Assembly (NCBI GenBank): GCA_963716175.1
Contig: OY970296.1
Coordinates: 3,533,684-3,597,683, forward strand
Source: an uncultured Armatimonadetes bacterium
GTDB taxonomy: Bacteria > Armatimonadota > Hebobacteria > Hebobacterales > Hebobacteraceae
DNA length: 64,000 nt
Direction of reading: 5' to 3'
Below the pieces are notes generated by a model, which had not been told where the DNA came from, did not search any database, and worked only from the letters and a program-made list of their open reading frames with translations. Made by a program: the position numbers and the translations under genes. Each line of letters starts with the position of its first letter. The first letter of the stretch is position 1. This document shows positions 32,985 through 53,710 of this stretch, piece by piece.

Positions 32985-33749
32985 TCAGGCTGACGCAGCT
33001 CCGCCGGGCAGCAGACGGCCGCTCTGCACCACATAGGGGTGGGTGGCCTCGGCCGACTGCCACTGCTGGCTTCCCCCGGCGCCAGGGTCGTAGGCACACA
33101 TCGCCATCACGCCGAGTGCCTGAAGCAGTCCAGTCGCCCGCCTCTCATATTCCCACCAGGCACCTGGCGGCATCTGTCGCACCAGCGCCCTGCGCGGCCA
33201 GCTGAAGGTCCGTGCCTTTCCCCCGGAGTGAGGGCGAATGGCCTGCTCGGTGCGTCTGAGCTGGCCGTCGGCCGTGAACTCGCCGGGCGGAAGGTAGCAC
33301 TCGGAGGGGGAGATGAAGACCAGACTCGCTTGCACCAGCGCCCGATCGGGGCCGGGATCCAGTCGGGCGATAGCTCGGCGCAGCTGAGCTGACCAGCTTG
33401 GGGCAGCGATGCACTGGCAATGCTCACCGGCCTGGAGCCCGGCCGCGAGGAACCGCGCTGCCACTGCCAACGCTTCCTGGCTCGTCTCCGGGAGCAGACA
33501 GAGATGGCTTCCCTCGGGAACTTGGTCGGCGGAGAACCCCAAGTCCACCATCTTCGCCCACGCATCGGCCGGGTGAGCGCCGGATGCGGCAGGCGCAAGC
33601 TGCCAGTGCGCGTAGTAGCCGGTGCGGCCGTCCGGGAAGCTCACCGCCAGGAAGAGGCGGCCCACCTCTTTGACTGTGCCAGTAGCGCCGACAGGTATAC
33701 CTGGCAGGGCCACCACCGTTCGCGCTCTATCGCCTACGCGCATCGCCAC
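32985..33749 (-). CDS. MEDS-domain-like protein with N-terminal small beta domain
   Basis: HLCLL.ETSQEALAVAARFLAAGLQAGE.C, C.YD pattern reminiscent of MEDS sensory domain; no HTH/kinase fused. Confidence 0.5.
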   Translation of the reverse strand: MAMRVGDRARTVVALPGIPVGATGTVKEVGRLFLAVSFPDGRTGYYAHWQLAPAASGAHPADAWAKMVDLGFSADQVPEGSHLCLLPETSQEALAVAARFLAAGLQAGEHCQCIAAPSWSAQLRRAIARLDPGPDRALVQASLVFISPSECYLPPGEFTADGQLRRTEQAIRPHSGGKARTFSWPRRALVRQMPPGAWWEYERRATGLLQALGVMAMCAYDPGAGGSQQWQSAEATHPYVVQSGRLLPGGAASA

Positions 33750-36024: not shown

Positions 36025-36828
36025 CTAGGGAACGCCTGCGAGCAGGGGCTGAAGCTGAGCGCGCAGCCGGAGCATGGCCTTGCCGTGAATCTGACAGACC
36101 CGGGATTCAGTCACCCCCAGCACACGGCCAATCTCCTTCAAGGTCAGCCCCTCATGATAGTAGAGGCTGACCGCCATCCGCTCGGCCTCCGGCAGCGCGT
36201 CGATCGCCTTCGCCAGCTCGTCTCGCTCTGCCCAGCGCTCCACTTGCTCCTCCGGGGAGAGGGCGCGGCGATCCGCCACCGTGTCACCCAGGGTGTCTTC
36301 GTCCCAACCCTCCCCGCGGCCGCCTGAGATCGCTTCATCCAGGGATTGGACGGCCTGCAGCGCCACCTCTTGGGCGATCTCACTCAGCTCCTCGACCGAG
36401 ACCTCCAGCGCCGCCGCCAGCTCCTCGTCAGAGGGAGGCCGGCCCAGCCTATCCTGCAGCCTGGCGCAGGCCGAGGTCACCTCCGACTCGCGCTGGCGAA
36501 CCGAGCGCGGCAGCCAGTCCATGTCCCGCAGCATATCCATCACTGCGCCCCGGATGCGGTGATAAGCATAGGTCTCGAACTTGACTCCTCGCCCGGGGTC
36601 GAACCGGTCAATGGCGTCTATCAGGCCCACCACCGCCTGGCTCAGCAGGTCCTCATAGCCCAGCGCCGACGCCGGCCTGAGGTTCATGCGCTCCACGACA
36701 TAGCGCGCCAGCGGGGCATAGCCCTCGATGAGCTGGCGCCGCAGCTCGGCCGCAGGCTCGGAATCGGCGCGGCTCGCCGCGTACTTCCCCCATACCCACT
36801 CTGAATCTTCCACCAGCCCCACCTCCAC
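36025..36828 (-). CDS. RNA polymerase sigma factor, FliA/WhiG (sigma-28) family
   Basis: regions 2 and 4 (YAYHRIRGA, LTLKEIG..LGVTESRVCQIH). Confidence 0.85.
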   Translation of the reverse strand: MEVGLVEDSEWVWGKYAASRADSEPAAELRRQLIEGYAPLARYVVERMNLRPASALGYEDLLSQAVVGLIDAIDRFDPGRGVKFETYAYHRIRGAVMDMLRDMDWLPRSVRQRESEVTSACARLQDRLGRPPSDEELAAALEVSVEELSEIAQEVALQAVQSLDEAISGGRGEGWDEDTLGDTVADRRALSPEEQVERWAERDELAKAIDALPEAERMAVSLYYHEGLTLKEIGRVLGVTESRVCQIHGKAMLRLRAQLQPLLAGVP

Positions 36829-38184: not shown

Positions 38185-39933
38185 CTACCCGGCCGCCCGG
38201 CGAGCCCTGCCCGAGCGGACTACCTTGAAGGTTCCGGACGTCTTCTGCCATGCCACCAGGTAGTCGCCTGGGAGCAGCACCGACCAGGCCATTTCCCGGG
38301 GCGAGATGTCTCCATCTTGCCGCACCACACGCACCGGAACCGGCCGGCCCCTCCGCAGTGCCACTGCTTGTTCGAGGCTATTGCGGAAGACTTGTGCTCC
38401 CAGGTGGGTCTCTGGCAGATCCTGTACGTACAGGGCCAGATGGCCGCTTGGCCCTTGCAGCCGGTCTGCCAGATCAGCGCTGGCAGTAACGATCCGGGCC
38501 GCGGTTCGTCTCGCTTCCCTCCAGGGCAAGATGTACCAGGAGGTCAGACCAGCGGCGACGAGGAGGACGACCGCGATCCCAGCTCCGCGCTGCCAGCCCA
38601 TCTGGCGCGCACTGCACAGATCGCCGAAGAGCCACACCAGGCCAATCGTTGGCAAGTAAGCGAACCGGCTGTGTTCCAAGTCTGGCGCGGCTGCCGCCAG
38701 CGTCCACGCTGGCACCAGCATGAACAGGAAGAAGCCCGACCACAGCATGAGCCGACGACCGGGCACTCCTCCGAGTTGGCGCATCATCCACAGCAGGCCC
38801 AGTGCCATCAGCACCACAGTGACGGGCAGCCAGGGTCCACCCGCGAGCCGGAACAGGTCCTGATGAACCGGGAAGAAGAAGGCGACGATATGCCGAAAGG
38901 GCGTCCATGGCAAGACGGTGTCGTGGGCAGTCAGGTGGAGAGGGTATCCGCCCAGTCCGCCCCTGACGTGAATGCGCCACGCCAGATACCCGCAGAGCAC
39001 GATCGAGTAGCATCCCCCGACCATCACTGTGCGCCGCCAGCGGCCTTCCGGCTGCCCCAGAGCGGCCCAGAGCAGGGCCGCCGCTGGCAGCGCCAGGGCC
39101 GCCTCCTTGCTCAACAGGGCAAGCAGGAAGCTGCCCAGCGCGGCGGCCATGGCGAGCCACTGCCAGGCCCGCGCGGAGGAGGTGAGATAGGCCTGCAGGC
39201 TGAGCAGGGACAGGAGACAGAAGCAGGTGCACAGCAGGTCGGCGCTGCAGGAGGCCCAGACCACGGTTTCCACGTGAAGCGGATGCAACGCGAACAGCAT
39301 TCCCGCCAGGCCCGCCCCCAGTCTGCTGCCGGTCACACGACTCGCCAGCAGGTAGACCAGGACCGAGTTGGCCGCGTGCAGAGAGACGCTGGCGAGATGA
39401 TAGCCCATGGGCGCCCCTGCCCAGGCCTTCACGCCGATCCACCATAGCAGCATGGACACCGGCCGAGAGAAGTACTCCAGCACCTGACTGGTTGCTGCTT
39501 CGCGTAGGCCTCCGGCGGACTGCGCCACCCAGAGCAACCCGAAGTCGTCCGAGAGGAGGCCGACCTTCAGGCTTGGGAGATACACCAGGATGGCGGCCGC
39601 TATCACGGCAGTGGCAGGAGCCAGGCTCCTGCCCAATATGGCAGGCGCCGCCCGCGTCTCCGGCGTCTTGCTCGCGGCCGCAGGCGAGAAACCCAAGAGC
39701 CCGCGCCCGGCCACGGCCACCACTACCAGGCAGAGGGCGGCGACATTCGCGCTCCATTCCGCTGTCGGGAGGGCCGGCAGAAACCACCACCGCCACGCCA
39801 GGGCGGCCACCGCGATGCCGGCCGCCGCATTCACCAGGCGACGATCTCGCCTCCCGGCGGCCGCGGCGAGCCGGCCGGTCTTGCTCGTCCTCTTCCCGCG
39901 GGCGCGAGGTGGGCGCTTGAGGCCGTGGTGCAC
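38185..39933 (-). CDS. GT-C-fold membrane glycosyltransferase, TMTC/PMT-like (DUF1736-like YHL.N..LH motif)
   Basis: start trimmed to GTG just after the flavoprotein stop; YHLASVSLHAANSVLVYLL, HPLHVETV motifs; TPR partner encoded separately downstream. Confidence 0.65.
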   Translation of the reverse strand: MHHGLKRPPRARGKRTSKTGRLAAAAGRRDRRLVNAAAGIAVAALAWRWWFLPALPTAEWSANVAALCLVVVAVAGRGLLGFSPAAASKTPETRAAPAILGRSLAPATAVIAAAILVYLPSLKVGLLSDDFGLLWVAQSAGGLREAATSQVLEYFSRPVSMLLWWIGVKAWAGAPMGYHLASVSLHAANSVLVYLLASRVTGSRLGAGLAGMLFALHPLHVETVVWASCSADLLCTCFCLLSLLSLQAYLTSSARAWQWLAMAAALGSFLLALLSKEAALALPAAALLWAALGQPEGRWRRTVMVGGCYSIVLCGYLAWRIHVRGGLGGYPLHLTAHDTVLPWTPFRHIVAFFFPVHQDLFRLAGGPWLPVTVVLMALGLLWMMRQLGGVPGRRLMLWSGFFLFMLVPAWTLAAAAPDLEHSRFAYLPTIGLVWLFGDLCSARQMGWQRGAGIAVVLLVAAGLTSWYILPWREARRTAARIVTASADLADRLQGPSGHLALYVQDLPETHLGAQVFRNSLEQAVALRRGRPVPVRVVRQDGDISPREMAWSVLLPGDYLVAWQKTSGTFKVVRSGRARRAAG

Positions 39934-39935
39934 TT

Positions 39936-40523
39936 TCAGTCCCCCAGGCTGAGCTGCGCCAACCGCCGCCCCAGATCGCGCGCGGCCTCTAGCGCTCGCG
40001 CGTCTTGCAGAACATCGCCCGGGTCGCGTCCCACCGCACATACCTGCCAGCCCGCGTCGGAGGGGGAACCGGCCAGCATCATCCCGTGGTTGAGGGCGCA
40101 GGCGAGAACATGCGTGGCCGCCACCTCCTGGCCGCCCCAACGTGCGGCCCCGACCGTCACCACGGCGATCACCTTGCCCGACAGCTTGCGTCCCATCCAC
40201 CACAGCGGCCGCATGCGGTCGAAGACCGCTTTCAACTGCGCTGTCATGCTGTTGAGATAGACTGGCGTGCCGAACACGATGGCATCGGCCCAACCGAGCA
40301 GGGGATAGAGCTCCGTCATGTCATCCTGTTGGACGCAGCGGCCGGAGGGATCGCGCACACAAGAGGCGCAGGCGGTGCAGGGCATGATGGTTCTTCCCGC
40401 GACCGTGAACAGGGTGGCGGCCGCGCCCTCCTCCCGCGCCGCCTCCAGCACCCGCTCCATCAACAGCTCCGTATTCCCGCCCTTCCGCGGGCTGCCGACG
40501 AGGCCGAGGATATGCTGCATCAT
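39936..40523 (-). CDS. iron-sulfur flavoprotein (Isf) / NADPH-dependent FMN reductase family
   Basis: SPRKGGNT flavodoxin-like N-term and compact CX2CX2CX7C cluster motif. Confidence 0.8.
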   Translation of the reverse strand: MMQHILGLVGSPRKGGNTELLMERVLEAAREEGAAATLFTVAGRTIMPCTACASCVRDPSGRCVQQDDMTELYPLLGWADAIVFGTPVYLNSMTAQLKAVFDRMRPLWWMGRKLSGKVIAVVTVGAARWGGQEVAATHVLACALNHGMMLAGSPSDAGWQVCAVGRDPGDVLQDARALEAARDLGRRLAQLSLGD

Positions 40524-40672: not shown

Positions 40673-42253
40673 ATGGCGAATCGGCTAACGAACAACATGC
40701 TTCGCCGCCTCGCCTCCGAGATCGGCGTCGTCCGCAAGGACCACGGCGGCCGGCTCCGCGTCTGCCTGGTCTACCCGAACACCTACTTCGTGGGCATGTC
40801 CAGCCTGGGCTTGCAGGCCGTCTACCATCTCTTCAACGCCCGCCCCAATGTGGTCTGCGAGCGGGCCTTCTTGCCTGACCCCGCGGACTTGGCCGACCTG
40901 GTCCGCACCGGCGCCCCGCTAGTCTCCTATGAGTCACAGACTCCTCTCCAGCAGTTCGATGCCATCGCCTTCTCCATCTCCTATGAACTCGATTACATGA
41001 ATCTCGCGCGGGTGCTGCGGCTAGCGAAGCTGCCAGTGATGGCCCACGAACGGGACGACCGCCATCCCCTGGTTGTGGCCGGAGGCGCGGCCGTTTCCAT
41101 CAACCCGGAGCCGCTCGCCGACCTGGTGGATTTGTTCGTGGTAGGAGAGGCGGAGCCGGTTTGCGATCGGTTGCTGGCGGCGCTCGCCGGCCGCCTGTCG
41201 AGAGAAGAGCTGCTGGCAGGGCTGCCGGACCTGCCAGGGGTACACGTTCCGGCCCGAGGAAGCTTGCATGAGGGCTTGGCGAGGAGAGCCGTCCAACGCC
41301 AATATGCCCGGCCTTTGGATGCCTGGCCGACTCACTCGCGCCTCCTCACGCCGGACACGGAGTTCGGCAACCTATTCCTGGTTGAGGCCGCCCGCGGCTG
41401 CGGGCGGGGCTGCAAGTTCTGCGTGACGCCGGCCTGCTACTGGCCGTTGCGGTGGCGCTCGGCGGGGAAGATCATGGAATCAGTGGAGGCCGGTCTGGCC
41501 CACCGCGATGCGGTGGGCCTGGTCGGTGCTGCTGTCTCCGACCACCCCGAGATCGAGGAGATCGCGCGCCGCATCCGAGGGGCGGGCGCCAGACTGTCGG
41601 TCTCCTCCTTGCGCGCGGACACGGTGTCTCCAGCGCTCATCGGAGTTCTGGCCGGGAGCGGCGCCCGCAGCATCACCGTGGCGCCGGAGGCGGGGAGCGA
41701 CCGGCTGCGCGCGGCAATCGGCAAGGGTATCTCGGAGCAGGAGATCATCAAGGCGCTGCGCACGGCCGCCGACGGCGGCATCAGGGAGGCAAAGCTCTAT
41801 TTCATGGTGGGCTTGCCCGGGGAAGGGGAGGAGGACGTCGCCGCCATACCCGCCCTGGTCCGTAAGTGCCTCACGGCCGCCCACCTCGGCGCGCTGACCG
41901 TCGCCGTCGGTGCATTCGTGCCCAAACCCCACACCCCGTACGAACGTGAGCCCATGCTGTGGGTCGCCGAGCTCTGGCGCCGGCTGCGCGCCGTCCGCGA
42001 GGAGCTGCGGGGCGAACCGCGGGTCAAGTTGGCGCTGGAGAGCGCCAACTGGTCCTACCTGGAGGGGGCGCTCAGTCGGGGTGACAGGCGCCTGGGGCCG
42101 GTTATCGCTGCCGCGGAAGCGAGGGGAGGCAACCTGGCGGCCTGGCGCACCGCCTTCCGAGAGGCCGGCCTGAGCGCCGAGCAGTTCGCCGGTCGCGCCC
42201 CTGAAGGTGAGCTGCCCTGGGGGTTCATCCTCCCAGACGGGAGCAGTTTCTGA
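40673..42253 (+). CDS. B12-binding-domain radical SAM protein (TIGR03960-like uncharacterised family)
   Basis: LVYPNTYFVGMSSLGLQ N-term, CGRGCKFC, 526 aa. Confidence 0.75.
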   Translation: MANRLTNNMLRRLASEIGVVRKDHGGRLRVCLVYPNTYFVGMSSLGLQAVYHLFNARPNVVCERAFLPDPADLADLVRTGAPLVSYESQTPLQQFDAIAFSISYELDYMNLARVLRLAKLPVMAHERDDRHPLVVAGGAAVSINPEPLADLVDLFVVGEAEPVCDRLLAALAGRLSREELLAGLPDLPGVHVPARGSLHEGLARRAVQRQYARPLDAWPTHSRLLTPDTEFGNLFLVEAARGCGRGCKFCVTPACYWPLRWRSAGKIMESVEAGLAHRDAVGLVGAAVSDHPEIEEIARRIRGAGARLSVSSLRADTVSPALIGVLAGSGARSITVAPEAGSDRLRAAIGKGISEQEIIKALRTAADGGIREAKLYFMVGLPGEGEEDVAAIPALVRKCLTAAHLGALTVAVGAFVPKPHTPYEREPMLWVAELWRRLRAVREELRGEPRVKLALESANWSYLEGALSRGDRRLGPVIAAAEARGGNLAAWRTAFREAGLSAEQFAGRAPEGELPWGFILPDGSSF

Positions 42254-42394: not shown

Positions 42395-42423
42395 TTGACT
42401 TGACCTGGCCGCCGTGCTAGCAT
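42395..42423 (+). promoter_or_regulatory. putative promoter TTGACT-N17-TAGCAT upstream of giant gene
   Basis: hexamers read from sequence. Confidence 0.4.
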
Positions 42424-42432
42424 GGCGCTCGG

Positions 42433-42522
42433 ATGAGGACTTGGCCGGCGGCGGAGAGAACGCGGCCGGCGAGGGTTTTGGACTGGCCCTCCGCCGGCAA
42501 AGCAGGAGGCGACTCGACATGA
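42433..42522 (+). other. 29-codon upstream ORF (MRTWPAAERTRPARVLDWPSAGKAGGDST) ending in ATGA overlap with main start
   Basis: in-frame ATG..TGA; stop overlaps main ATG 42519; could be coincidental. Confidence 0.25.
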
Positions 42523-45500
42523 ACGCAGCGCTCCGGTTCGGCATGCGGCGGGGGTTGATCTTTGGGCTCAGTGGTCTGCTCCTTGCCGTTCTCTGGGCCT
42601 CTTCCCCGGCGCTCGCGGCGCTGGGGAAGAAAGAGCCGACCCCGGAGCAGAAGAAGTGGTGGAAGACCTTCTCGAATGAGGTCAAGTCGGCCAATATCGA
42701 GCGCCACGTCGTCAACCTGAGCAACTCAGGTCCTCGCCTGGCTGGCTATCCCGGGGCCGAGGTGGCGGCCGAGTATATCGCGAAGGAAGTGCAGGCCCTG
42801 GGCCTGAAGGATGCCAGCCACGGCGGCCTCGATCCCAAGCTCCCCTACCGCGAAGCTTACTGGGTGACCGTTCCCTGGGTCTGGGGGCAGCCCACGGTGG
42901 AGGTGCTGGTCGGCGGCAAAGCCGTGGCGAGCTATCCGGTCTATCCCCTCTGGCCGAACCTGGTCCGGACCTCCCAATTGCCGGAAGGGGGCAAGACCTA
43001 CCGCTTGATAGCTGGCGGTGATGGAAGTCTGGCCGAGTTCAGCGGGAAAGACGTCGAGGACACGGCCGTTCTGCTGCAGTTCTCCGGTGGCACCACGTGG
43101 CTGAACGCCCCTCGCCTGGGCGCCCGCGCGGTGATCTTCATCGAGCCGGAGGCGCTCGAGCGGGGCGAGGCCGAGGCCAAGTTCCTGCGCATCCCCATCA
43201 ACATCCCTCGCTACTGGATCTCCCGCAGCGATGCCAACCGCTTGATCGCCAGGCTGAAGTCCCAGCCGGAGGTGATGATCCGGATTCAGTGCCACATGAC
43301 CTGGGAGAGAAAGCAGGCCTGGAATATCGTGGCCGAGATCCCGGGCACCGACAAAGAGCTGAAGAAGCAGGCGGTCTATCTCACCGCCTACTACGACACC
43401 ATGTCCATGGTGCCCCAGCTCTCGCCAGGGGCCGAGAGCACCGCGGGGGCGGCCAGCCTGCTCGAGCTGACCAGGATTCTGGCCAGGTATCCCCCCAAAC
43501 GCACGGTGCGGGTGATCTTCAACGGGGCCCATTTCCTGGGTCTGGCTGGGGTTCGCAACTACGTCGCCACGCACCTGAAGGAGCTGACCGACGGCCTGCC
43601 GGTGAGGGAGCGGACGCGCTTCTTGGGGTTGATCCCCTACACCCACACCGTGATGAAGAAGATGCCGATCAACCTCTTCCTGGCTTTCGACCTGTCCACT
43701 CACCACAGCCGGGTTGGCCTCTTCTACAAGGGGTTCTTCTACGACCAGCGCGAGGATATGGATATCAGCCGCCAGTTCTCTGATTTCGCCCGCACCCTGA
43801 GAGAGAATGCGGGGCTGATGGCGGATTGGGAGACGACCAAGGGCTTCACTGACGCCGAGGCCGGGTTCGCGGATGGCGTGAACCCGATCTACGGCAAGCC
43901 CTGGCGCACCTTCATCTTCGGGAAGATCGCGCTGGACAATGAGCCCATCACTCTGGGTGGGGGACGGGGAGCAGGCTTCGTCACCACCGATGACTCCCGG
44001 CCCCTGTTGGACACCCCCTTCGACACCGTTGACCAGGTGAACTTCAAGAACCTGTACACGCAGAGCTGCTTCCTTGCCGCCACCCTGTGGGACGTCGTGA
44101 ACGACCCCAAGATGCCGGTGGACAAGGACCCCAAGTTCGCGCGGATGACGCTCTCCGGCGGCTTCGCCGAGCTGACGGCGAAGGCCCTGGCCTTCGATCC
44201 CACCAGGAGCGTGGTGGCCGACAAAGTGGTGTCAGGCACCATGGTGGTGGCTCGCATGTCGGACTCCACCCTGATGGGCACGCGCGGTGACCTGGTGGAG
44301 ATCGTTGACGACCGGGGCCGCAGCCACTTCTGGGGTTACCCCACCATCAACGCTTACGGCTGGCGCAAGCCCAGCTACATCGAGGCCTACCACACCAACC
44401 CGCAGACCGGCGACATTGACTACGCTCCCGACTGGGGCCCCATGGTCAGCCGCAGCAACCCCGATCCCACCCAGTTCTTCATCACCTCCGGCAAGAAAGA
44501 ATGCACCATCGTCATCTTCGACTGCGTCCCCATTGCCCTCTATGACCTGGTTGACCCGCAGAGCCTGACCACGCTCCGCTATATCAAGGTCTACGACGGC
44601 CAGACCGATGCCGAGCCCAGACGCTACGGGCTGACCGTTCCCCATCCCGAGCCGCTGCGCGGCCATGTGGAGGACGTGGCCCTGGTGTTTGCGGACAAGG
44701 GCCAGCGGGTGAAGGTGATGATGGGCCTGGGGGGCGGCTCGATCCGCATGCTGTTGCTGAACGCGGCGACCATCAGCCCCAAGTACGAGAGCGGGCTGGG
44801 GTATCTCGCGGACAAGCCCTTCGCGCTCTCCCACACCCCGCTGCGGGTGACACAGGACATGTGGAAGCTGGACGACCTGCGGATGAAGAAGCTGGAGGGC
44901 TTCCGCATCGTGAATGAGGTGGTGCGATCCCTGCACACCACCGCCGGGACGCTGCTGGCGAAAGCGCAGAAGGCGCTGGACCGCAAAGACTACGAGCTGG
45001 CCGATGCCGAGGCGCGAGCGGCCTGGGGCTATGAGGCGCGGGCCTATCCCGCCGTGCTCTCCACTATGAACGACGTGGTGAAGGGCGTGCTCTTCTACCT
45101 CGCGCTGATGCTGCCGTTCGCCTTTTTCGTGGAGCGCCTGGTGTTCGCTTTCCCCAACCTGCGCACCCAGATCTTCGGCATCGTCATCATCTTCGCGGTG
45201 ATCTGCCTGATCTTCAGCTTCATCCATCCCGCCTTCGAGATCACCAAGAACCCCTGGATCGTGCCGCTGGCCTTCATTATGGTGGCCCTCAGCGTGTTGG
45301 TGATCACGCTGGTGACGATGAAGTTCGAGACTCAGCTCAAGATGCTCCAGATGAAAGTCTCCGGGGTGCACCGCGCCGACATCGGGCGCATGAGCGTGGC
45401 CGCCGCGGCCTTCGCCCTGGGGATCAGCAACATGCGCAAGCGCCGCGCCCGCACCGTGTTCACCTGCCTCACCCTGATCCTGCTCACCTTCACCGTGCTC

Positions 45501-47156
45501 TCCTTCACCTCGGTGAAGACCGCCACTCGCTACAACGAGCGCCGCGCCAAGGGCAAGCCCACCTACCAGGGCCTGCTGGTGCGCAACGCCATGTGGGAGC
45601 CGCTGGAGGAGTCAGCCTATCGGGTGCTGGATGACGAGTTCGGCCGCAGCCGGGCGGTGGCGCCTCGCGCCTGGTTCTTCACCTCCAAGACCGAGGAGCA
45701 GTCCTTCCTGCTCGTGAAGAGCCCGGCCACCGGGACCACCTACGACGCCCGCGCAGTCACCGGGCTGACCCCGGCCGAAACCGAGGTCACCGGCCTCAAC
45801 CACGCCCTGCTACCTGGCGGGCGCTGGTTCCGGCCCGGCGACGTGCATGCCGCCATCATCTCCGCCCGCATGGCGGACGCCTTCCACCTTCTGCCGAGCG
45901 ATGCGGGGAAGGTGAAGATTGACCTGGGCGGCGTGCCGTATGACCTGATCGGCATCCTCGACGCCAGCAAGGCGAAGCGCATCCTGGATCTGGACCAGGA
46001 ACCGCTCACCCCGGTGGACTGGATTCAGATGCAGCGCATGGCGCGGCAGGGCGGCGGCCAGCAGCAGCAGGGCCAGAAGTCAGGGTTCCAGGAGTACCTG
46101 CACCTCTCGCCCGACCAGGTGGTGTTCGTGCCCTTCAACACCGCCATCAACCTGGGGGCGGAGGTCGAGTCCGTGGCGGTGAGCTTCATCACCCCGCAGG
46201 AGGTGAAGCAGACCCTCCGCGCCCTCATGCCCAGGCTCGGCTTCAACCTCTACGCCGGCACCGGCACTGAGATCCGCAAGTGGAGCGCCATCGGGCGCAC
46301 CTCCATCTCCGGGATGAGCGATATCCTCATCCCCATCCTGATCGCGGCCCTGATCGTGCTCAACACCATGCTGGGCGCGGTCTACGAGCGGGTGCGAGAG
46401 ATTCACATCTTCAGCTCCATCGGGCTCGCCCCCAGCCACATCGCCACCCTGTTCATGGCCGAGTCCTTCGTCTACGCCATCCTGGGCGCCATCTTCGGCT
46501 ACCTCATCGGCCAGGGTATGGCCAAGATCATCACCGCCCTGCACCTTCTGCCCGGCCTCTACCTCAACTACTCGTCCGTGTCGGCGGTGGCCTCCACCAC
46601 CGTGGTCATCGGCGTGGTGCTGCTGTCCACGGTGTATCCGGCTCGCAAGGCCTCCGAGGTAGCCACGCCAGCGCTCGATCGCCGGTGGCAGGTGCCGGAG
46701 CCAGTTGGCGATTCCTGGGACATCCCCCTGCCCTTCGCGGTCACTGGCGAACAGGCCAACGCGCTCATCCGGTTCATGGTGGAGTGGTTCGAGGCCTATG
46801 AGGAGTATTCCATCGGGGATTTCGTCACCCAGGATGTCACCAACTTCGAGGAGAAGGCGGATTACGGCACTGCCTACGTGATTCAGCTCATGGCCTGGGT
46901 GGCGCCCTTCGACCTGGGCGTCAGCCAGAAGGTGCAGCTGCGGACCGTGCCCACCGACATGGAGGACGTGTTCGAGATCATGCTCCACCTGGAGCGTGTG
47001 AGCGGAGACGTCTCATCCTGGCGGCGGGTGAATCGCCGCTTCCTCAACACCTTGCGCAAGCAATTCCTGATCTGGCGGACGCTGCGAGCGGAAGAGCGAG
47101 ACCGCTATCTGGGCCTGACCCCGGCCGCCGGCGCCGCCGCGGAGGCCGCCTCCTGA
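42519..47156 (+). CDS. giant (~1545 aa) envelope protein: signal peptide, M28/PA-domain peptidase-like ectodomain with substituted metal ligands, central unknown region, C-terminal FtsX/MacB-type 4-TM permease module
   Basis: AGGAGG SD 6 nt upstream; M28-like blocks (NIVAEIPG, AYYDTM, GAESTAGAAS); FtsX signature region ...ERVREIHIFSSIGLAPS... Confidence 0.75.
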   Translation: MNAALRFGMRRGLIFGLSGLLLAVLWASSPALAALGKKEPTPEQKKWWKTFSNEVKSANIERHVVNLSNSGPRLAGYPGAEVAAEYIAKEVQALGLKDASHGGLDPKLPYREAYWVTVPWVWGQPTVEVLVGGKAVASYPVYPLWPNLVRTSQLPEGGKTYRLIAGGDGSLAEFSGKDVEDTAVLLQFSGGTTWLNAPRLGARAVIFIEPEALERGEAEAKFLRIPINIPRYWISRSDANRLIARLKSQPEVMIRIQCHMTWERKQAWNIVAEIPGTDKELKKQAVYLTAYYDTMSMVPQLSPGAESTAGAASLLELTRILARYPPKRTVRVIFNGAHFLGLAGVRNYVATHLKELTDGLPVRERTRFLGLIPYTHTVMKKMPINLFLAFDLSTHHSRVGLFYKGFFYDQREDMDISRQFSDFARTLRENAGLMADWETTKGFTDAEAGFADGVNPIYGKPWRTFIFGKIALDNEPITLGGGRGAGFVTTDDSRPLLDTPFDTVDQVNFKNLYTQSCFLAATLWDVVNDPKMPVDKDPKFARMTLSGGFAELTAKALAFDPTRSVVADKVVSGTMVVARMSDSTLMGTRGDLVEIVDDRGRSHFWGYPTINAYGWRKPSYIEAYHTNPQTGDIDYAPDWGPMVSRSNPDPTQFFITSGKKECTIVIFDCVPIALYDLVDPQSLTTLRYIKVYDGQTDAEPRRYGLTVPHPEPLRGHVEDVALVFADKGQRVKVMMGLGGGSIRMLLLNAATISPKYESGLGYLADKPFALSHTPLRVTQDMWKLDDLRMKKLEGFRIVNEVVRSLHTTAGTLLAKAQKALDRKDYELADAEARAAWGYEARAYPAVLSTMNDVVKGVLFYLALMLPFAFFVERLVFAFPNLRTQIFGIVIIFAVICLIFSFIHPAFEITKNPWIVPLAFIMVALSVLVITLVTMKFETQLKMLQMKVSGVHRADIGRMSVAAAAFALGISNMRKRRARTVFTCLTLILLTFTVLSFTSVKTATRYNERRAKGKPTYQGLLVRNAMWEPLEESAYRVLDDEFGRSRAVAPRAWFFTSKTEEQSFLLVKSPATGTTYDARAVTGLTPAETEVTGLNHALLPGGRWFRPGDVHAAIISARMADAFHLLPSDAGKVKIDLGGVPYDLIGILDASKAKRILDLDQEPLTPVDWIQMQRMARQGGGQQQQGQKSGFQEYLHLSPDQVVFVPFNTAINLGAEVESVAVSFITPQEVKQTLRALMPRLGFNLYAGTGTEIRKWSAIGRTSISGMSDILIPILIAALIVLNTMLGAVYERVREIHIFSSIGLAPSHIATLFMAESFVYAILGAIFGYLIGQGMAKIITALHLLPGLYLNYSSVSAVASTTVVIGVVLLSTVYPARKASEVATPALDRRWQVPEPVGDSWDIPLPFAVTGEQANALIRFMVEWFEAYEEYSIGDFVTQDVTNFEEKADYGTAYVIQLMAWVAPFDLGVSQKVQLRTVPTDMEDVFEIMLHLERVSGDVSSWRRVNRRFLNTLRKQFLIWRTLRAEERDRYLGLTPAAGAAAEAAS

Positions 47157-47197: not shown

Positions 47198-49261
47198 GTG
47201 ACCAGGTTGGCTGAGGAACTGGAGGAGAAACCGGAAGCCGCGCCATCGGGAGCAGACGAGGGCGAGTATTACATGGAGCGCCGGCCGGAGCTGGAACCGA
47301 CAGAGTTCCGCGAAGGCTTCACCATGAAGACGTTCCTGGGCGCTCTCTTCATCGGGGTCATCATGATGCCGGGAGCCATCTACCTGGCGCTCATGATGGG
47401 CCAGAGCATGGGGTCCGCGGGCCAGTGGACCACCATCATCCTGATCACCGAGGTTGCCCGCCGCTCCTTCACCAAGGTGTCCCGCCAGGAGCTGTACATG
47501 ATCTACTACATGGCGGGCAGCCTGCTGTCCGCCGGCGGGACGCTGGCCGGAGGCGCCTTCGCCTATTTCGTGTGGAACGCCTACCTGATCAACTCCACCG
47601 CGGCGCAGAACTTCGGCATTGCCAAGCTCATCCCGCGCTGGGTGGCGCCGCCGCTGGGGTCTTCCGCCTACATCCAGCGCACCTTCCTGCACCATGACTG
47701 GACCATTCCCATCGTGCTGACCGTGCTGGGGAGTATCTTCGGGCGGGCGCAGTGGATCGGCATGGGCTACTTCCTGTTCCGCACCACCTCCGATGTGGAG
47801 CGACTGCCATTCCCCATGGCGCCCATCGCCGCTCAGGGGGCCACGGCGCTGGCCGAGGTCTCGGAGGAGAAGGAGTCCTGGCGCTGGCCGGTGTTCAGCG
47901 TGGCCACCATGATCGGGCTGGTATACGGCTTCTTCTACGTCGCCATCCCCGTGATCACCGGCGGCTTCCTCGCCGACCCGCTGAAGCTCATCCCCATCCC
48001 CTTCATTGACTTCGTGCAGAACGCAGAAGATGCGCTGCCCACCAACCGGATCGCGATCGCCACCGATCTGGGGCCCATCTTCTGGGGATTCGTGCTGCCC
48101 TTCCCCATCGTCGTCGGCGGCTTCATCACCTCCATGTTCACCAACTTCCTGTTCTCGCCCCTGCTCTACCATTTCACCTACAGCCCCGTCCTGGGCAAGT
48201 CCACCCTGTTCCCGCAGTGGTCCAAGGGCATGAACCTGATCCAGAGCCAGATGATCCTCGGCTTCGATTTCTACATGAGCTTCGGCATCGGGATCTCGCT
48301 TGCCATCGCCGCCATCGGCCTCTACTCGGTCCTCAGCACCCTGTTGAAAGCCCGGGTGGCTCGCGCCCAGGGCGCGGCCACCAGAGGCTACCGCGATGTC
48401 CCAGCCGGCAGAGGCGACTTCCCCATCTGGCTGGCGCTGGTGGCCTGGGCCTTGCCCGCGGTCTACTACGTGATCCTGGGGCACTATCTGGTGCCCAGGT
48501 TCCCCGTGTATTGGCTAATCTTCTTCGCTTTCGTGTGGACCCCGGTGATCTCCTATGTATCGGCGCGCATGAATGGCCTCCGGGGGTGGGGCATTGACAT
48601 CCCCTACGTGCGGCCTGCGGTGTTCATCCTCAGCGGGTACAAGGGGGTGGACATCTGGTTCGCGCCCATCAACCAGGACGACCACGGTTGGGCTGCTTCC
48701 CAGTTCCGCGAGGTGGAGCTGACCGGCACCAGGATGGTCAGCGTGGTGAAGGCGGAGGCCTTCCTGCTGGTGCTGATGCTGTTCTGCAGCTTCGTCTACT
48801 GGTCATTCTTCTGGAAGACCAGCCAGATCCCATCCTCCCAGTACCCGTACGCCCAGATGTTCTGGCCCCTCAACGCCTTCTGGCAATGCCTCTGGGCCAC
48901 CGCCACTATGCCGCACAAGGCCGGGGAGGCCACCTTCTTGCTCAAAGCCGTCAAGCCCTCGATCATCGGCTATACCGGCGCCGGCGCCATGGCCCTCTAC
49001 TGGATCATGAGCGCCTTCCGGGTGCCCACCCTGTGGTATTACGGGCTGATCGGAGGCTTCAGCGACACCACCTGGGCCATCCCCAGCTTCATCGGCGCCA
49101 TGCTGGGGCGTTATTACTTCGCCCGCCGCTTCGGCAAGAACCGCTGGCGCCAGTACACGCCGGTGCTGGCCGCCGGCTATGCCTGCGGAGTGGGCCTGAT
49201 CGGGATGGTGTCCATCGGCCTGACCATTATCTTCAAGGCGGTGCGGTCGCTGCCGTTCTGA
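47198..49261 (+). CDS. polytopic membrane protein, distant OPT-family (oligopeptide transporter)-like
   Basis: 687 aa, ~16 TM; N-terminal ...FTMKTFLGALFIGVIMMPGAIYLALMMG resembles OPT N-terminus; assignment tentative. Confidence 0.55.
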   Translation: MTRLAEELEEKPEAAPSGADEGEYYMERRPELEPTEFREGFTMKTFLGALFIGVIMMPGAIYLALMMGQSMGSAGQWTTIILITEVARRSFTKVSRQELYMIYYMAGSLLSAGGTLAGGAFAYFVWNAYLINSTAAQNFGIAKLIPRWVAPPLGSSAYIQRTFLHHDWTIPIVLTVLGSIFGRAQWIGMGYFLFRTTSDVERLPFPMAPIAAQGATALAEVSEEKESWRWPVFSVATMIGLVYGFFYVAIPVITGGFLADPLKLIPIPFIDFVQNAEDALPTNRIAIATDLGPIFWGFVLPFPIVVGGFITSMFTNFLFSPLLYHFTYSPVLGKSTLFPQWSKGMNLIQSQMILGFDFYMSFGIGISLAIAAIGLYSVLSTLLKARVARAQGAATRGYRDVPAGRGDFPIWLALVAWALPAVYYVILGHYLVPRFPVYWLIFFAFVWTPVISYVSARMNGLRGWGIDIPYVRPAVFILSGYKGVDIWFAPINQDDHGWAASQFREVELTGTRMVSVVKAEAFLLVLMLFCSFVYWSFFWKTSQIPSSQYPYAQMFWPLNAFWQCLWATATMPHKAGEATFLLKAVKPSIIGYTGAGAMALYWIMSAFRVPTLWYYGLIGGFSDTTWAIPSFIGAMLGRYYFARRFGKNRWRQYTPVLAAGYACGVGLIGMVSIGLTIIFKAVRSLPF

Positions 49262-49276: not shown

Positions 49277-50245
49277 TTGCGTCAGACGGTCAATGGTGGA
49301 GGCGGTTTGACAGTACAAGTAGATTACGATACGACAGCCATCGGATGGCACGGAGTCTCGGTCCGGGTTCCGGCGGACTGGACTCTGGGTGCGGTAGGGG
49401 GTGATCGCAAGTCCGGCTACCTGCGGGTAGATGACGAGCGCATGCCGCGGCTCCAGCTGAAATGGTCGCAGGGCCACATCAACCTGGAGAAGAAGCGAAG
49501 CGAATACGCCAACCGGCTGACCACGGGCAAACGCAAGCGGCCCACCGGGCTCACCGTGGACCTGGAGGCCCGGGTAATCAGCGGGCGCTCGAAGCCGAAG
49601 AAGGAGCTGGCCACCTTCGCCTGGCGGGGCCCGCAGTGCGGGATGGGGGTGCTGTGGAACTGCCAGGTATGCAACCGGGCCCTCATCGCGCAGGTGAGCT
49701 GGCAGCAGCCGGAGCGCCTGCACGAGGTGGCCCAGCAGGTGCTGGGGTCGCTGGAAGATCACGCCATCGGCGGCTGGCAGTTGTGGGGCGTAGATAGCTT
49801 CGCCTTCCTCGCGCCAGAGGGTTATGACCTGGCGAAGTGGAAGCGAATGACGCGCTATCTCGAGCTGACCTTGACGACCAAGAGGGAGGCCACCCTCCGC
49901 GCGGTGCGGTGGGGAATGGTGGCGCTGGTGCTGGGCGGGCGGACGCTGATGGAGTGGTACCAGGACGAGAACAGGCGGCGGCGCGATGTGCGGTGGCAGG
50001 CGCAGGAGATGGAGGTGAAGGGCCACCAGGCGGTGGCAGCCTGGGGTGAGCGCAGACGATTCGCAGGGAGCGTGAGAAAGGGCCTGGCCAAGCTGCTGGG
50101 GCGCAAGCCGGCGGTGGATTTCGCCGCTTGCGCCTGGCACTGCCCGGACTCGAACCGGATCTACCTGGCGGAGACGATTTACGCCGAAGGGCAGGATGTG
50201 CTGAAAGGAGTGGTGGACTCCATCCTCTGCCATGAGGAGGCGTGA
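49277..50245 (+). CDS. hypothetical protein with Cys-rich motifs (C.x7.C.x2.C ; C.x3.C)
   Basis: 322 aa; alternative TTG start 49307 with GGTGGAGG SD. Confidence 0.55.
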   Translation: MRQTVNGGGGLTVQVDYDTTAIGWHGVSVRVPADWTLGAVGGDRKSGYLRVDDERMPRLQLKWSQGHINLEKKRSEYANRLTTGKRKRPTGLTVDLEARVISGRSKPKKELATFAWRGPQCGMGVLWNCQVCNRALIAQVSWQQPERLHEVAQQVLGSLEDHAIGGWQLWGVDSFAFLAPEGYDLAKWKRMTRYLELTLTTKREATLRAVRWGMVALVLGGRTLMEWYQDENRRRRDVRWQAQEMEVKGHQAVAAWGERRRFAGSVRKGLAKLLGRKPAVDFAACAWHCPDSNRIYLAETIYAEGQDVLKGVVDSILCHEEA

Positions 50246-50654: not shown

Positions 50655-51353
50655 ATGGCAAACGCAGGGCAAGTGGTTCCAGGGGGCCGCATTCAGATCG
50701 AGAGTCAGATCGTCCTTCCCTGGTCGCGCACTCTCCAAATGACCAGGGAGAATATCTTCGTCCGGTTCGGCCGGTCTGTGATCACCGCCTCCGGCATCTT
50801 CCTCGGCATTGCCTTCATGAGCGCGGTGCTGTTCGGCGCCGCTGCCGGCCGGGTGCAGCAGCAGCTGGCCACCTCGCAGTTGGGCTTGCTGGGCACTGAG
50901 AGCACCAGCGGCGAGACGCAGGCCAGGACGATCTGGCTGGTGGGCATGTCCCTGCTGGTGGCCACCGTCGGGATCGTCAACTCCATGCTGATGTCGGTCA
51001 CCGAGCGCTACAAGGAAATCGGCACCATGAAGTGCCTGGGGGCGCTGGACCGCTTCATCGTGCGCCTCTTCATCCTGGAGGCGGCGCTGCTGGGCGTCCT
51101 GGGATCTATCGTCGGGGCGCTGGTGGGCACCGGCGCCATGACCTTGGTCTACACCTATCGCATGGGCTGGGGCCACGCCCTCTCGAGCTGGCACGAGACC
51201 GCGCTGCGGCTCGGTGGTTGGTCCATACCGCTCTGGTTGGCGATTGTCCTCGGCATCGTCGTCGGTGGGCTGCTGTCCGTCTGCGCCGCTCTCTATCCCG
51301 CCTGGCGGGCCGCCAAGATGCCCCCGGCCGCGGCGCTGCGCTCGGAGTTCTGA
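50655..51353 (+). CDS. FtsX-like ABC permease, minimal 4-TM form without large extracytoplasmic loop
   Basis: 232 aa; ...SVTERYKEIGTMKCLGA... FtsX-type core. Confidence 0.7.
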   Translation: MANAGQVVPGGRIQIESQIVLPWSRTLQMTRENIFVRFGRSVITASGIFLGIAFMSAVLFGAAAGRVQQQLATSQLGLLGTESTSGETQARTIWLVGMSLLVATVGIVNSMLMSVTERYKEIGTMKCLGALDRFIVRLFILEAALLGVLGSIVGALVGTGAMTLVYTYRMGWGHALSSWHETALRLGGWSIPLWLAIVLGIVVGGLLSVCAALYPAWRAAKMPPAAALRSEF

Positions 51354-51500: not shown

Positions 51501-52244
51501 ATGTCTGTCTACGAGTATATTGTGCGTACCAAGGACCTGATGAAGGTCTACACGATGGGGGATACGGAGGTGCGCGCGGTGGATGGCGTTGCCCTCGACA
51601 TCAGGCGGGGCGAGTATATCTCCATCATGGGGCCTTCGGGATCGGGGAAATCCACGCTCTTCAACATGATCGGAGGGCTGGACAAGCCCAGCGGCGGCAC
51701 GGTCTTCATTGACGAGACGGATATGGCGCAGCTCACCGCCTCCGAGCTCGCCTACCTGCGCTGCCGCAAGATCGGCTATATCTTCCAGACCTTCAACCTG
51801 ATCCCGGTGATGACCGCGCTGGAGAACGTCACCCTGCCCATGATCTTCGCCGGCCTCTCCACCGACAATGCTCTGGACAAGGGAGTCGAGCTGCTCAAGA
51901 CTGTGGGCCTGGGCGATCGGCGAGATCATAAGCCCACGGAGCTTTCCGGCGGGCAGCAGCAGCGGGTGGCCATCGCCCGCGCCCTGGCCAACGACCCCGC
52001 CATCATCCTGGCGGACGAGCCCACGGGCAACCTCGACCTGCGCACCGGCAAAGAGATCATCGCCCTGCTCAAGCAGATGAACGAGGCGAAGAAGGTCACC
52101 GTCATCTCTGCGACCCACGATCTGAAGATGATTGACGTCTCGGACCGGGTGGTGTGGATTCGGGACGGCAAGATCGAGCGCATTCAGGAGCGCGCCGACA
52201 TTGACGTGAAGGTCGGCGTGATGGAAGGCGAAGAGGTAGGATAG
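51501..52244 (+). CDS. ABC transporter ATP-binding protein (MacB/LolD/FtsE-like)
   Basis: Walker [10 protein letters not shown], signature [15 protein letters not shown], Walker [12 protein letters not shown]. Confidence 0.9.
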
Positions 52245-52317: not shown

Positions 52318-52385
52318 TTCCGGTTTGCACGCGGACGCAGCGGCAGGCCACTGCGGCGCGGCGCACACCCTGGATGGCGCTTTCC

Positions 52386-52414
52386 TTGACACCGGAAAAG
52401 GAAACTCTTATGAT
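52386..52414 (+). promoter_or_regulatory. promoter TTGACA-N17-TATGAT; predicted TSS coincides with first ATG (leaderless)
   Basis: TTGACA 52386-91, TATGAT 52409-14, ATG at 52422. Confidence 0.5.
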
Positions 52415-52421
52415 CTCCTGG

Positions 52422-53066
52422 ATGGGCATGAGAGGAATGGATAGCCGCCGCGGTTACAGCAGCTTCCCCACCACCTTTCTCATCTTCTCCCTCCTCCTGC
52501 TGGTGCTGGCTGGCGGATTCGCGGTGGGCCGGCTCGTGGTTGGGCGGGCCTACGTGAAGTCGGCCGGGCAGTTCGAGAAGTGGCCCGGGCCTAAGGCCGA
52601 GGAAGCGACCGCTGCTCCTGCGGAGGGAGAGCTCCCGTCAGGGCAGGGCTATGTCCCGGCACCGTCTCGGCAGGCCGCGGAGTCCCAGTCGCCGGGGAAA
52701 CCGGAGGCGGCTCCGGGTGAGCAGACCGAGCAGGCCAAGCCGGAGGCGCCGGCGGCGGCCAGCGCACCCGCGCCCTCACCCGCGCCCCAGGCCTTGCCGG
52801 CGCCCGCGGAGAGCCCGCAGCCGGCGGAGGAGAAGGAGAGAAGGTACGCCATCCAGGTGGGAGTGTTCGAGGGGGAGGAGGGGGCGCAGAAGGTGGCGGA
52901 TGATCTGGCGCGGGCCGGCTATCCTGCCCAAGTGGAGAGCACCCGAGGCGAGCAGGGCAATGTCTATCGGGTACTCACTGGGCGCTACCGCACGGAGTAC
53001 GCCGCCCGCAAGGCTATGGATCAGCTCAGGCAGGAGGGGTTCTCGGGGTTCCTGGTCGAGCGCTGA
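52422..53066 (+). CDS. SPOR-domain (peptidoglycan-binding, division-site) membrane protein
   Basis: N-terminal TM, Pro/Ala/Glu-rich linker, C-terminal SPOR (YAIQVGVF...A..V...L...G....V). Confidence 0.7.
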   Translation: MGMRGMDSRRGYSSFPTTFLIFSLLLLVLAGGFAVGRLVVGRAYVKSAGQFEKWPGPKAEEATAAPAEGELPSGQGYVPAPSRQAAESQSPGKPEAAPGEQTEQAKPEAPAAASAPAPSPAPQALPAPAESPQPAEEKERRYAIQVGVFEGEEGAQKVADDLARAGYPAQVESTRGEQGNVYRVLTGRYRTEYAARKAMDQLRQEGFSGFLVER

Positions 53067-53095: not shown

Positions 53096-53710
53096 GTGAA
53101 GGAAGGCTCAGAGGATAATCGGACTGAAGATCAGGAGGGGGAGGCGGAGGAACCGGAGTTGCTGCCGGCGGAGGAACTGGTCTCGACCGAAGAAGAGGAG
53201 AGCAGAGGATCCGAAGTCGAGGTGCTGCAGAAAGAGCTGGCGCTGCTGGAGGGCCAGCTTCAGGACCTGCGGGACCGATACTTGCGAGCGGTGGCCAATC
53301 TGGATAATTCGCGCAAGCGGGCCCGGCGGGAGATGAGAGAGGTGCAGCAGCGGGCCGCGGCCAGCGTGCTGCTGGATCTGCTCACGGTGGTGGACAGCTT
53401 CGAGCGCGCCTTGGGGACGGCGAGAGACTTGGGGGCGGTCCCTGCCGAGACCAGGGCTGTGTACGATGGCCTCACCTTGATCTACCGGCAGTTAGTGGAT
53501 CTGCTGGGCCGGCGAGGGGTCAGACCCATCTCCGCGGTGGGCGCGCGATTCGACCCCAGCTTTCACGAGGCGGTTGCCCAGGTCCCAGCAGGCCCCGAGC
53601 AGGAGGAGGGGCTGGTGGCGCTGGAGGTGCAAAAGGGCTACCTGTATGGCGATCAGGTGCTGCGGCCCAGCAAGGTCGGGGTGACGGTGCACACCGCGTC
53701 CAGGAGCTAG
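53096..53710 (+). CDS. grpE: nucleotide exchange factor GrpE
   Basis: coiled-coil N-term, RKRA..E motif, C-terminal beta domain. Confidence 0.85.

Follow-up and report, generated by a model that had tools for sequence, protein, structure and literature searches.

ABC (ATP-binding cassette) systems of type VII form a small, much-studied class of mechanotransducers with few outputs, namely efflux, lipoprotein extraction and hydrolase activation. In eukaryotes, pseudo-peptidases of the M28 fold (transferrin receptor, nicastrin, nicalin) act as binding or scaffold modules; we know of no bacterial M28-fold pseudo-peptidase fused to a motor. Here we describe a gene from a 64,000-nucleotide stretch of contig OY970296.1 of an uncultured Armatimonadetes bacterium (the whole stretch is hereafter called the window). 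Its 1545-residue product, which we call the giant protein, combines an M28/PA-fold ectodomain with an FtsX-type permease. We propose, with moderate confidence, that this protein is a non-peptidase, M28/PA-fold binding ectodomain carried on the permease of a type VII ABC mechanotransducer, and that it probably handles peptides. Literature searches returned no description of the giant-protein family, of the gene cassette in which it lies, or of its combination of domains.

An earlier sequence-only reading of this DNA had recognized an M28 peptidase-like domain in the giant protein, and profile searches and structure prediction bore this out. Pfam family PF04389 (Peptidase_M28) matched residues 269-352 (37.2 bits against a cut-off of 21.3, E 3.3e-9), spanning only positions 1-80 of the 193 in the profile. 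A phmmer search against all PDB chains retrieved the PA-M28 aminopeptidases YwaD/BSAP (6hc6), 3iib and 2ek8 at E 2.5e-7 to 1.7e-5, and nicalin weakly. With a profile built from 81 members of the giant-protein family, the matches were to 2ek8 (E 5.5e-21), 6hc6 (E 2.9e-16), nicalin (E 8e-7), the N-terminal/PA part of transferrin receptor 1 (TfR1; E 2e-6) and 1amp (E 4.7e-6). An AlphaFold2 model of residues 36-880, built on the family alignment, had a pLDDT of 91.3 and a pTM of 0.88. When this model was compared with the PDB by Foldseek, the top matches were 2ek8 (E 2.6e-25), 6hc6/7, 3iib and the Pseudomonas aeruginosa aminopeptidase PaAP (E 1e-25 to 1e-20), followed by glutamate carboxypeptidase II (GCPII) and TfR1 (E ~1e-20 to 1e-18). 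The ectodomain has the fold of the bacterial PA-domain di-zinc aminopeptidases (family M28, clan MH).

To locate the former zinc site, Aeromonas aminopeptidase (AAP; sequence identical to 1amp_A) was used as the reference and aligned to the family hidden Markov model, and conservation was scored in two sets, one of 120 close homologues and the other of 150 more distant representatives (30-50% identity). The HxD block had been read as AYYDTM, with Tyr in place of His, and this motif lies at residues 290-295 (nucleotides 43386-43403). The first Tyr of YYD is the replacement, with the alignments placing AAP ligand His97 at Tyr291, and Tyr292-Asp293 form the x-D of the block; phmmer, the family profile and the AAP alignment all make Asp293 the counterpart of Asp99, the second-shell Asp. 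Position 291 is Tyr in 104, Phe in 14 and His in 2 of the close homologues (Tyr 111, His 12 and Phe 8 among the representatives), and Asp293 is kept in 146 of 147 representatives. A GAESTAGAAS block, also picked out from the sequence before, is present at residues 304-313 (nucleotides 43428-43457). The loop that holds the bridging Asp117 of AAP is here one residue shorter than the canonical GAxDxxSG, and HMMER either pairs Asp117 with Ser307 or treats it as an insertion. Adjacent Glu306, the sole acidic candidate in the loop, could substitute for Asp117; this position is Glu in 118 and Asp in 2 close homologues (103 and 22 representatives, respectively), and position 307 is variable among the representatives.

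At the positions of catalytic Glu151 and ligand Glu152 the giant protein has His338 and Phe339. His338 is found in 120/120 close homologues and 142/146 representatives; position 339 is mostly Phe in the former and Phe, Gly, Tyr, Cys or His in the latter. Ligand His256 is replaced by Asp498, within a block that reads LDTPFD as against YHTPED in 6hc6, HHTPND in 3iib and YHTPxD in the canonical motif. Asp498 occurs in every close homologue and in 124 of 145 representatives, with Asn, Gly, Ala or Lys taking its place in ~15% of the representatives, and Asp502 of the same block is kept in 144 of 145. One ligand, Asp179, has a counterpart of the same kind in Asp391 (120/120 close homologues; Asp in 143 and Glu in 4 of the 147 representatives scored).

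Alignment to solved M28 enzymes with inspection of the ligands, the check suggested with the sequence-only reading, therefore found that the catalytic Glu and three ligands, two His and one Glu, are all replaced, and the giant protein lacks four of the six features by which an M28 catalytic site is recognized. A conserved set of five ligands at shifted positions, the outcome named beforehand as contrary to that reading, was sought in residues 255-530. His338 is the sole family-conserved His in this segment and no Glu-Glu pair occurs in it; because the core has only one conserved His, a shifted ligand set is impossible. The canonical ligand set was found in none of the 150 representatives, nor was the Glu-Glu pair. 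A canonical ancestor was also sought among them: a few keep His291 together with an Asp in the bridging loop (for example P0257, with AHYDS and GANDATG), yet all carry His or Phe in place of the catalytic Glu. We infer that the ectodomain is not a canonical co-catalytic zinc aminopeptidase.

Ranking of the 247 scored core columns by entropy in the 150 representatives placed Asp293 1st, Asp502 2nd, Asp391 8th, His338 9th and Asp498 23rd; the remaining site positions ranked lower (Tyr291 40th, Glu306 49th, Ser307 107th and Phe339 121st). Because His338 and the carboxylates stay fixed while positions 339 and 307 drift and position 291 tolerates Phe, the site has not decayed. This pattern points to a former zinc site that has been repurposed and is under strong purifying selection. 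The domain had been called catalytically degenerate, which is correct in so far as the canonical zinc ligands are replaced, but the wording misleads, since the substituted pocket is strongly conserved. The accompanying suggestion of a binding or pseudo-enzyme ectodomain gains support from the replacement of the canonical catalytic residues.

Coupling of this ectodomain to an FtsX permease, likewise proposed from the sequence, was confirmed. PF02687 (FtsX) matched residues 1271-1379 (53.6 bits against a cut-off of 25.5, E 2.9e-14), and the best solved relatives of the permease part in phmmer searches were YtrF, MacB and LolC. Transmembrane (TM) helices 2-4 (residues 1269-1372) include NTMLGAVYERVREIHIFSSIGL, a motif aligned with the coupling-helix region in these three proteins; the alignment with YtrF (9o9x) runs over NTM..ER.REI..SIG. 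Hydropathy analysis revealed a 270-residue extracytoplasmic loop between the helices at 979-997 and 1269-1287. The family profile aligns this loop to the MacB periplasmic domain and to LolF, and many homologues match PF12704 (MacB_PCD), for which the window protein itself is not above threshold. A cytoplasmic segment separates the third of three extra TM helices (ending at 932) from FtsX TM1 (979), and the topology is self-consistent, with the N-terminus inside and both large domains outside. No significant Pfam match was obtained for the beta-rich domain (residues 545-770) or for the C-terminal cytoplasmic tail of ~170 residues, which belongs to no known family. The tail is among the best-conserved parts of the giant protein (e.g. 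APFDLGVSQ and RVNRRFLNTLRKQFLIWRTL). At the level of sequence, then, the giant protein has the attributes of a type VII ABC permease, and its N-terminal extension appears to be unprecedented.

The sequence-only reading missed a conserved six-gene cassette, which points to peptide handling. Five genes follow the giant gene on the same strand with short gaps (Table 1), and their order is repeated in relatives at 50-56% identity. Among 54 Armatimonadota loci with at least 7.5 kb of downstream DNA, all five were present in 40, most of them in 3, the 687-residue gene alone in 4 and none in 7. Loci with the complete set span Chthonomonadales, Armatimonadales, Capsulimonadaceae and Hebobacteria. For the first downstream product, a polytopic membrane protein, 4 of 30 family members match PF03169 (OPT; best E 7e-8), and some members of the family bear the NCBI name 'peptide transporter'. 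The second is a soluble protein for which no Pfam or NCBIfam family was found; Foldseek related it to PsbP (E 5e-5), with a TM-score to the target of 0.55-0.6 for each half. PDB searches with profiles of the 687-residue OPT-like family and of this 322-residue protein returned no solved relative. The PsbP/Mog1 fold is a generic adaptor and gives no pointer to function. Residues C129, C132, H288, C289, C318 and H319 of the protein are invariant or nearly so, and this Cys/His set looks like a zinc site bridging both halves.

The third product is PqqD-like and scores under the curated cut-offs of all specific NCBIfam models (lasso/PQQ PqqD) for ribosomally synthesized and post-translationally modified peptides (RiPPs). 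It is followed by a small FtsX permease and by an ABC ATPase that scores 235 bits with the LolD model and 226 bits with the MacB model, both under the equivalog cut-offs and both above its score with the FtsE model. Such a minimal FtsX, as the presumed heterodimer partner of the giant subunit, is unusual among described type VII systems. ATP-driven conformational control, the last element of the sequence-only reading, can reasonably be expected from a LolD/MacB-type ATPase with intact motifs in the same conserved operon.

The giant-protein family is large. A word-indexed search returned 487 clusters, of which the named ones were Armatimonadota or candidate division KD3-62 and were annotated 'M28 family peptidase' or 'FtsX-like permease family protein'. 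An exhaustive HMMER search with the ectodomain gave 749 clusters (50% identity) at E < 1e-30 and 2358 at E < 1e-3; most of the matched relatives are 1450-1700 residues long and match over the whole ectodomain. A scan of species-representative genomes detected a relative in 410 species. Among the best 80 of these matches, all titles that name a lineage are Armatimonadota, including a metagenome-assembled genome (MAG) of Chthonomonas calidirosea, other Chthonomonadales, Fimbriimonadia, Armatimonadaceae, Capsulimonadaceae and Candidatus Hebobacteria, with the exception of two MAGs labelled Bacillota. The contigs of these two (L009 and L014) bear copies 72-77% identical to the giant protein; misbinning or mislabelling is the probable cause.

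The best sequence and structure matches of the ectodomain, the bacterial PA-M28 aminopeptidases (Aneurinibacillus AM-1, 2ek8; Bacillus subtilis BSAP/YwaD, 6hc6; Shewanella, 3iib; P. aeruginosa PaAP, PDB entries beginning 8ac), have the same fold and the same arrangement of a PA domain within the M28 domain. Asp293 of the giant protein, the second-shell residue of HxD, is shared with them, as are the DTPxD block and a ligand of the Asp179 type. Their catalytic Glu and three of their ligands, two His and one Glu, are replaced in the giant protein, and its bridging-Asp loop is one residue shorter. These aminopeptidases are, moreover, secreted, whereas the giant protein is membrane-tethered, is fused to an ABC permease and has an extra beta-rich domain. 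TfR1, nicalin and nicastrin, eukaryotic M28/PA proteins that are not peptidases, have likewise lost zinc ligands and serve as binding or scaffold ectodomains of membrane complexes (Foldseek match to TfR1, E 2e-18). The giant protein differs from them in that its matches to them are more distant than those to the bacterial aminopeptidases, its origin is bacterial and independent, its substituted residues are highly conserved, and it is fused to an ATP-driven permease. In the model, the C-terminal helical dimerization domain of TfR/GCPII is replaced by a beta-rich domain of ~16 strands and a stalk; because this helical domain is lacking, the giant protein falls outside the TfR/GCPII subfamily. 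The likeness to the transferrin receptor drawn in the sequence-only reading holds for the PA and protease-like domains and for the lost ligands. It is an analogy only, as the nearest structures are bacterial and the dimerization domain is missing.

With type VII ABC systems (MacAB-TolC, LolCDE, FtsEX-EnvC, YbbAP-TesA and B. subtilis YtrF) the giant protein shares the four-helix FtsX core, an extracytoplasmic domain between TM1 and TM2, the ERxREI motif and an operon ATPase of LolD/MacB/FtsE type. Two different permease subunits are encoded, as with LolC/LolE. FtsEX controls the degenerate peptidase EnvC by recruitment, whereas here the pseudo-peptidase is fused to the permease. Unlike these systems, the giant protein has an N-terminal ectodomain of 820 residues, three additional TM helices before the core and a conserved cytoplasmic tail of 170 residues; its partner FtsX is devoid of a periplasmic domain, and the OPT-like, PqqD-like and PsbP-like genes have no counterpart. 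RiPP clusters (e.g. those for lasso peptides, with a PqqD-type recognition element and an ABC exporter) likewise have a PqqD-like gene beside ABC genes, and in some lineages a B12-radical S-adenosylmethionine (SAM) gene lies near the present cassette. A RiPP cluster was nevertheless rejected as an explanation: neither L001-L004 nor the tblastn synteny table yielded a conserved maturase or precursor (small open reading frames were not searched exhaustively), and the radical SAM protein, from the widespread TIGR03960 family, shows no constant linkage.

How might a binding ectodomain and a type VII permease work together? What was once the active-site pocket would now serve to bind a cation or a positively charged group. 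A His and three carboxylates, clustered and buried, are normally a cation-binding arrangement, so either a metal or a ligand's ammonium or guanidinium group would be expected there; the likeliest ligand would be a peptide, bound by its free amino terminus or by a basic side chain and perhaps together with one metal, and the PA domain may form a lid over the pocket. From the ectodomain, the connection runs through the beta-rich domain, the three-helix stalk and the three extra TM helices to the four-helix FtsX core, which probably pairs with the small FtsX and two copies of the downstream ATPase. ATP binding and hydrolysis would move the stalk, and the ectodomain would be opened, closed or repositioned, by mechanotransmission as in MacB, LolCDE and FtsEX. 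The type VII paradigm, drawn from MacB, LolCDE, FtsEX and YbbAP, has been described (PMC5985334, PMC7668044, PMC12646458). A peptide captured outside would then be handed to, or taken from, the OPT-like protein.

That the ligand is a peptide, that the OPT-like and PqqD-like proteins receive or deliver it, and the direction of transfer are all speculative. A peptide is suggested because the conserved partners are OPT-like, PqqD-like and tandem PsbP/Mog1-like proteins. The hints comprise the OPT matches and the name 'peptide transporter', PqqD, and fusions to parvulin-type peptidyl-prolyl isomerase (PPIase) and LysM modules in relatives. Extra modules occur in several larger relatives (P0093, P0143, P0240 and P0251): a parvulin-type PPIase, Big_5, a C-terminal WCX domain, and LysM accompanied by an NMB0315-like domain I. 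They may hint at the nature of the ligand, polypeptide or peptidoglycan.

A number of observations weigh against a peptide-binding mechanotransducer. The inactivity of the ectodomain is deduced from sequence alone, and the clustering of the pocket residues is predicted from homology to the M28 site. The equivalence of Asp179 and Asp391 follows from the motif h-x-h-D-h-S/T and from strand position, with no significant HMMER alignment in that region. The window's own 687-residue protein has no Pfam OPT match, and we found no candidate gene for a peptide substrate. Synteny is our basis for pairing the giant subunit with the small FtsX and for assigning it the downstream ATPase. The cassette is absent from the 7 loci mentioned above, several of them titled Fimbriimonadales, and two distant relatives (31-34% identity) adjoin a 670-740-residue DUF6785/DUF6784 membrane protein (L086:7883-9892 and L087:3134-5353) rather than an OPT-like one; because of these two groups, the link to the OPT-like protein is not universal. 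The DUF6785/DUF6784-paired relative in L087 (P0228) also adjoins an ABC ATPase, and another distant relative of the giant protein stands alone. The DUF6785/DUF6784 partners were considered as homologues of the OPT-like protein; hhalign was negative and homology is not claimed. Finally, a mononuclear metal site could arise from the three conserved carboxylates and the invariant His at the position of the general base, which could make the protein a non-canonical hydrolase.

This last point leads to an alternative that we consider unlikely, namely that catalysis has arisen anew in the pocket. One metal would be bound by His338 together with Glu306, Asp391 and Asp498, or these residues would form a His/carboxylate catalytic set, and the protein would be an ABC-switched hydrolase acting on, for example, peptidoglycan stem peptides or secreted peptides. 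The near-invariance of the substituted residues while former ligand position 339 drifts is typical of functional sites, and the M28 fold has a mono-zinc derivative in glutaminyl cyclase. To our knowledge, however, no M28-fold enzyme functions without the Glu general base and the His ligands, and neither the tolerance of Phe at position 291 nor the replacement of Asp498 in part of the representatives fits such a site. Partnership of type VII ABC systems with hydrolases, which would suit a switched enzyme, is established for FtsEX (amidases or PcsB/RipC) and for YbbAP (TesA) (PMC12646458, PMC7668044). The dead peptidase domain might instead play an EnvC-like part in an FtsEX-like cell-wall regulator, where it would bind and activate, or restrain, a peptidoglycan hydrolase encoded separately, or bind peptidoglycan, in an ATP-dependent manner, with the OPT-like and PqqD-like genes as accessories (e.g. 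in recycling of released peptides). Control of a degenerate peptidase, the LytM protein EnvC, by Escherichia coli FtsEX provides the precedent (PMC7668044), and the near-universal presence of the family in the phylum suggests a housekeeping role in the envelope. One relative (P0143) carries fused LysM and NMB0315-like domain I modules, but LysM is seen fused only this once; the cassette is followed directly by a SPOR-domain gene in the window and its close relatives, but beyond these there is only one weak case. No hydrolase gene is conserved in the cassette and the LolD and MacB models outscore that of FtsE on the ATPase, so we assign this regulator a low probability.

We regard it as extremely improbable that the protein is an ordinary active M28 aminopeptidase with misaligned ligands, or a decaying pseudogene or fusion artefact. 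The public annotation of relatives as 'M28 family peptidase' speaks for activity, but four independent alignments to solved enzymes agree on the substitutions and the core has one conserved His. A pseudogene or artefact is at odds with an architecture kept intact in the 410 species-level genomes and the 749 clusters found at the stricter threshold, and with a model that is confident throughout. The cell-wall link (LysM, SPOR) and the peptide link (OPT-like, PqqD-like) can be combined if the ligand of the proposed binding ectodomain is a peptidoglycan stem peptide. A bolder proposal, which we offer as a tentative and rather doubtful one, is that the di-zinc site was rebuilt into a His/carboxylate centre, mononuclear or metal-free, that binds or processes the free N-terminus of a peptide, be it a secreted signal peptide or a stem peptide released from peptidoglycan. 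On this view the six genes would encode a hitherto unrecognized, ATP-powered extracytoplasmic machine for peptide capture and hand-off, from type VII ABC motor to OPT-like channel to cytoplasmic PqqD-like chaperone, and the cassette would be a housekeeping signature of Armatimonadota.

Coordinates of the features are collected in Table 1. The giant gene starts with an ATG at 42519, with AGGAGG ahead of it, and ends with a stop codon at 47154-47156; a full-length identical protein (P0001) is present in the public collection under the name 'hypothetical protein'. An Rfam scan found no RNA element close to the gene.

Table 1. Features of the giant gene and the downstream cassette, in window positions.
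Feature	Position	Strand	Basis
Candidate sigma-70-like promoter, TTGACT-17-TAGCAT, TG extended	42395..42423	+	5' of giant gene; consensus match only
Giant gene, M28-like/PA ectodomain-FtsX fusion, 1545 residues	42519..47156	+	Open reading frame; Pfam; identical public protein
N-terminal signal peptide or membrane anchor, residues 1-35 (hydrophobic 13-31, then ALA-A)	42519..42623	+	Hydropathy; sequence
Protease-like N-terminal part with inserted PA domain, residues 36-255 (approximate boundaries)	42624..43283	+	Profile alignment to 2ek8/6hc6/3iib and TfR1; Pfam PA matches in homologues; model
M28-fold core with substituted metal site, residues 256-530	43284..44108	+	Pfam; phmmer; profile; Foldseek; AAP alignment
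A-Y-Y-D, residues 290-293; Tyr291 in place of AAP ligand His97	43386..43397	+	phmmer; family profile; AAP alignment
G-A-E-S-T, residues 304-308, bridging-Asp loop	43428..43442	+	AAP alignment
His338-Phe339, in place of catalytic Glu151 and ligand Glu152	43530..43535	+	phmmer; family profile; AAP alignment
Asp391, counterpart of ligand Asp179 (kept), motif LFLAFD at strand end	43689..43691	+	Motif and model
L-D-T-P-F-D, residues 497-502; Asp498 in place of ligand His256	44007..44024	+	Family profile
Beta-rich extracytoplasmic domain, residues ~545-770, ~16 strands	44151..44828	+	DSSP of model; kept in family (matches reach query residue ~845)
Three long stalk helices (residues 773-876) leading into three extra TM helices, in total residues 773-932	44835..45314	+	Hydropathy; model
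MacB/FtsX-type core: TM1 979-997, extracytoplasmic domain 998-1268, TM2-4 1269-1372, ERVREI coupling-helix motif	45453..46634	+	PF02687; YtrF, MacB, LolC, LolF; PF12704 in homologues; hydropathy
C-terminal cytoplasmic domain, conserved, residues 1373-1545	46635..47153	+	Near-invariant alignment columns
Polytopic membrane protein, 687 residues, distantly OPT-like	47198..49261	+	PF03169 in family; 3' of giant gene in 47/54 loci
Soluble protein, 322 residues, two PsbP/Mog1-like domains, conserved Cys/His cluster	49277..50245	+	Model (pLDDT 89.4); Foldseek
PqqD-like (peptide-chaperone/RiPP recognition element-type) protein, 132 residues	50242..50640	+	PF05402 (E 2.5e-8, 34.6 bits against cut-off 23.4); also called in L001-L004
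Small FtsX permease, 232 residues, 4 TM helices, ~30-residue loop in place of periplasmic domain	50655..51353	+	PF02687 (E 9e-21); hydropathy; synteny
ABC ATPase, LolD/MacB/FtsE type; Walker A, signature, Walker B and H-loop intact	51501..52244	+	PF00005 (E 1.8e-34)

Just upstream of the giant gene lies the gene for the B12-binding radical SAM protein of the TIGR03960 family (40673-42253). Its relatives stand upstream of the cassette in close relatives (L007, L011, L015 and L016); another lineage (L061, L067 and L078; 36-38% identity) has them immediately downstream of the ATPase. The linkage of radical SAM genes near the PqqD-like gene is recurrent but loose. A 702-residue open reading frame on the minus strand (38185-40293), for which no Pfam match was found, is located beside the radical SAM gene also in L011 and L015 (45-48% identity). 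On the 3' side of the ATPase are the gene for the SPOR-domain protein (52374-53066) and that for GrpE (53096-53710); this pair is kept in the closest relatives only (L005-L017), and a weak SPOR match occurs in KD3-62 (L002). Further upstream, genes for a 758-residue HEAT-repeat protein (30200-32476), a MEDS-domain protein (32985-33749) and a sigma-70 family factor (36025-36828) are unlinked to the cassette in other genomes. Rfam models detected a 6S RNA gene at 875-1057 (82 bits) in the window, and tRNA genes at 630-703 and 21384-21469.

The broader finding is a phylum-wide, uncharacterized cassette centred on the giant protein. Relatives of this protein occur in at least 410 species-level genomes of a phylum that has been little studied, and cultured groups are among the matches, namely Chthonomonas (a C. 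calidirosea MAG) and the family Capsulimonadaceae. Public annotation is corrected in one respect: inventories of proteases should not list members of the giant-protein family under M28 peptidases. The family extends the type VII ABC class by a new kind of output module, by a new arrangement of subunits, in which a giant subunit is combined with a minimal FtsX, and by new partners.

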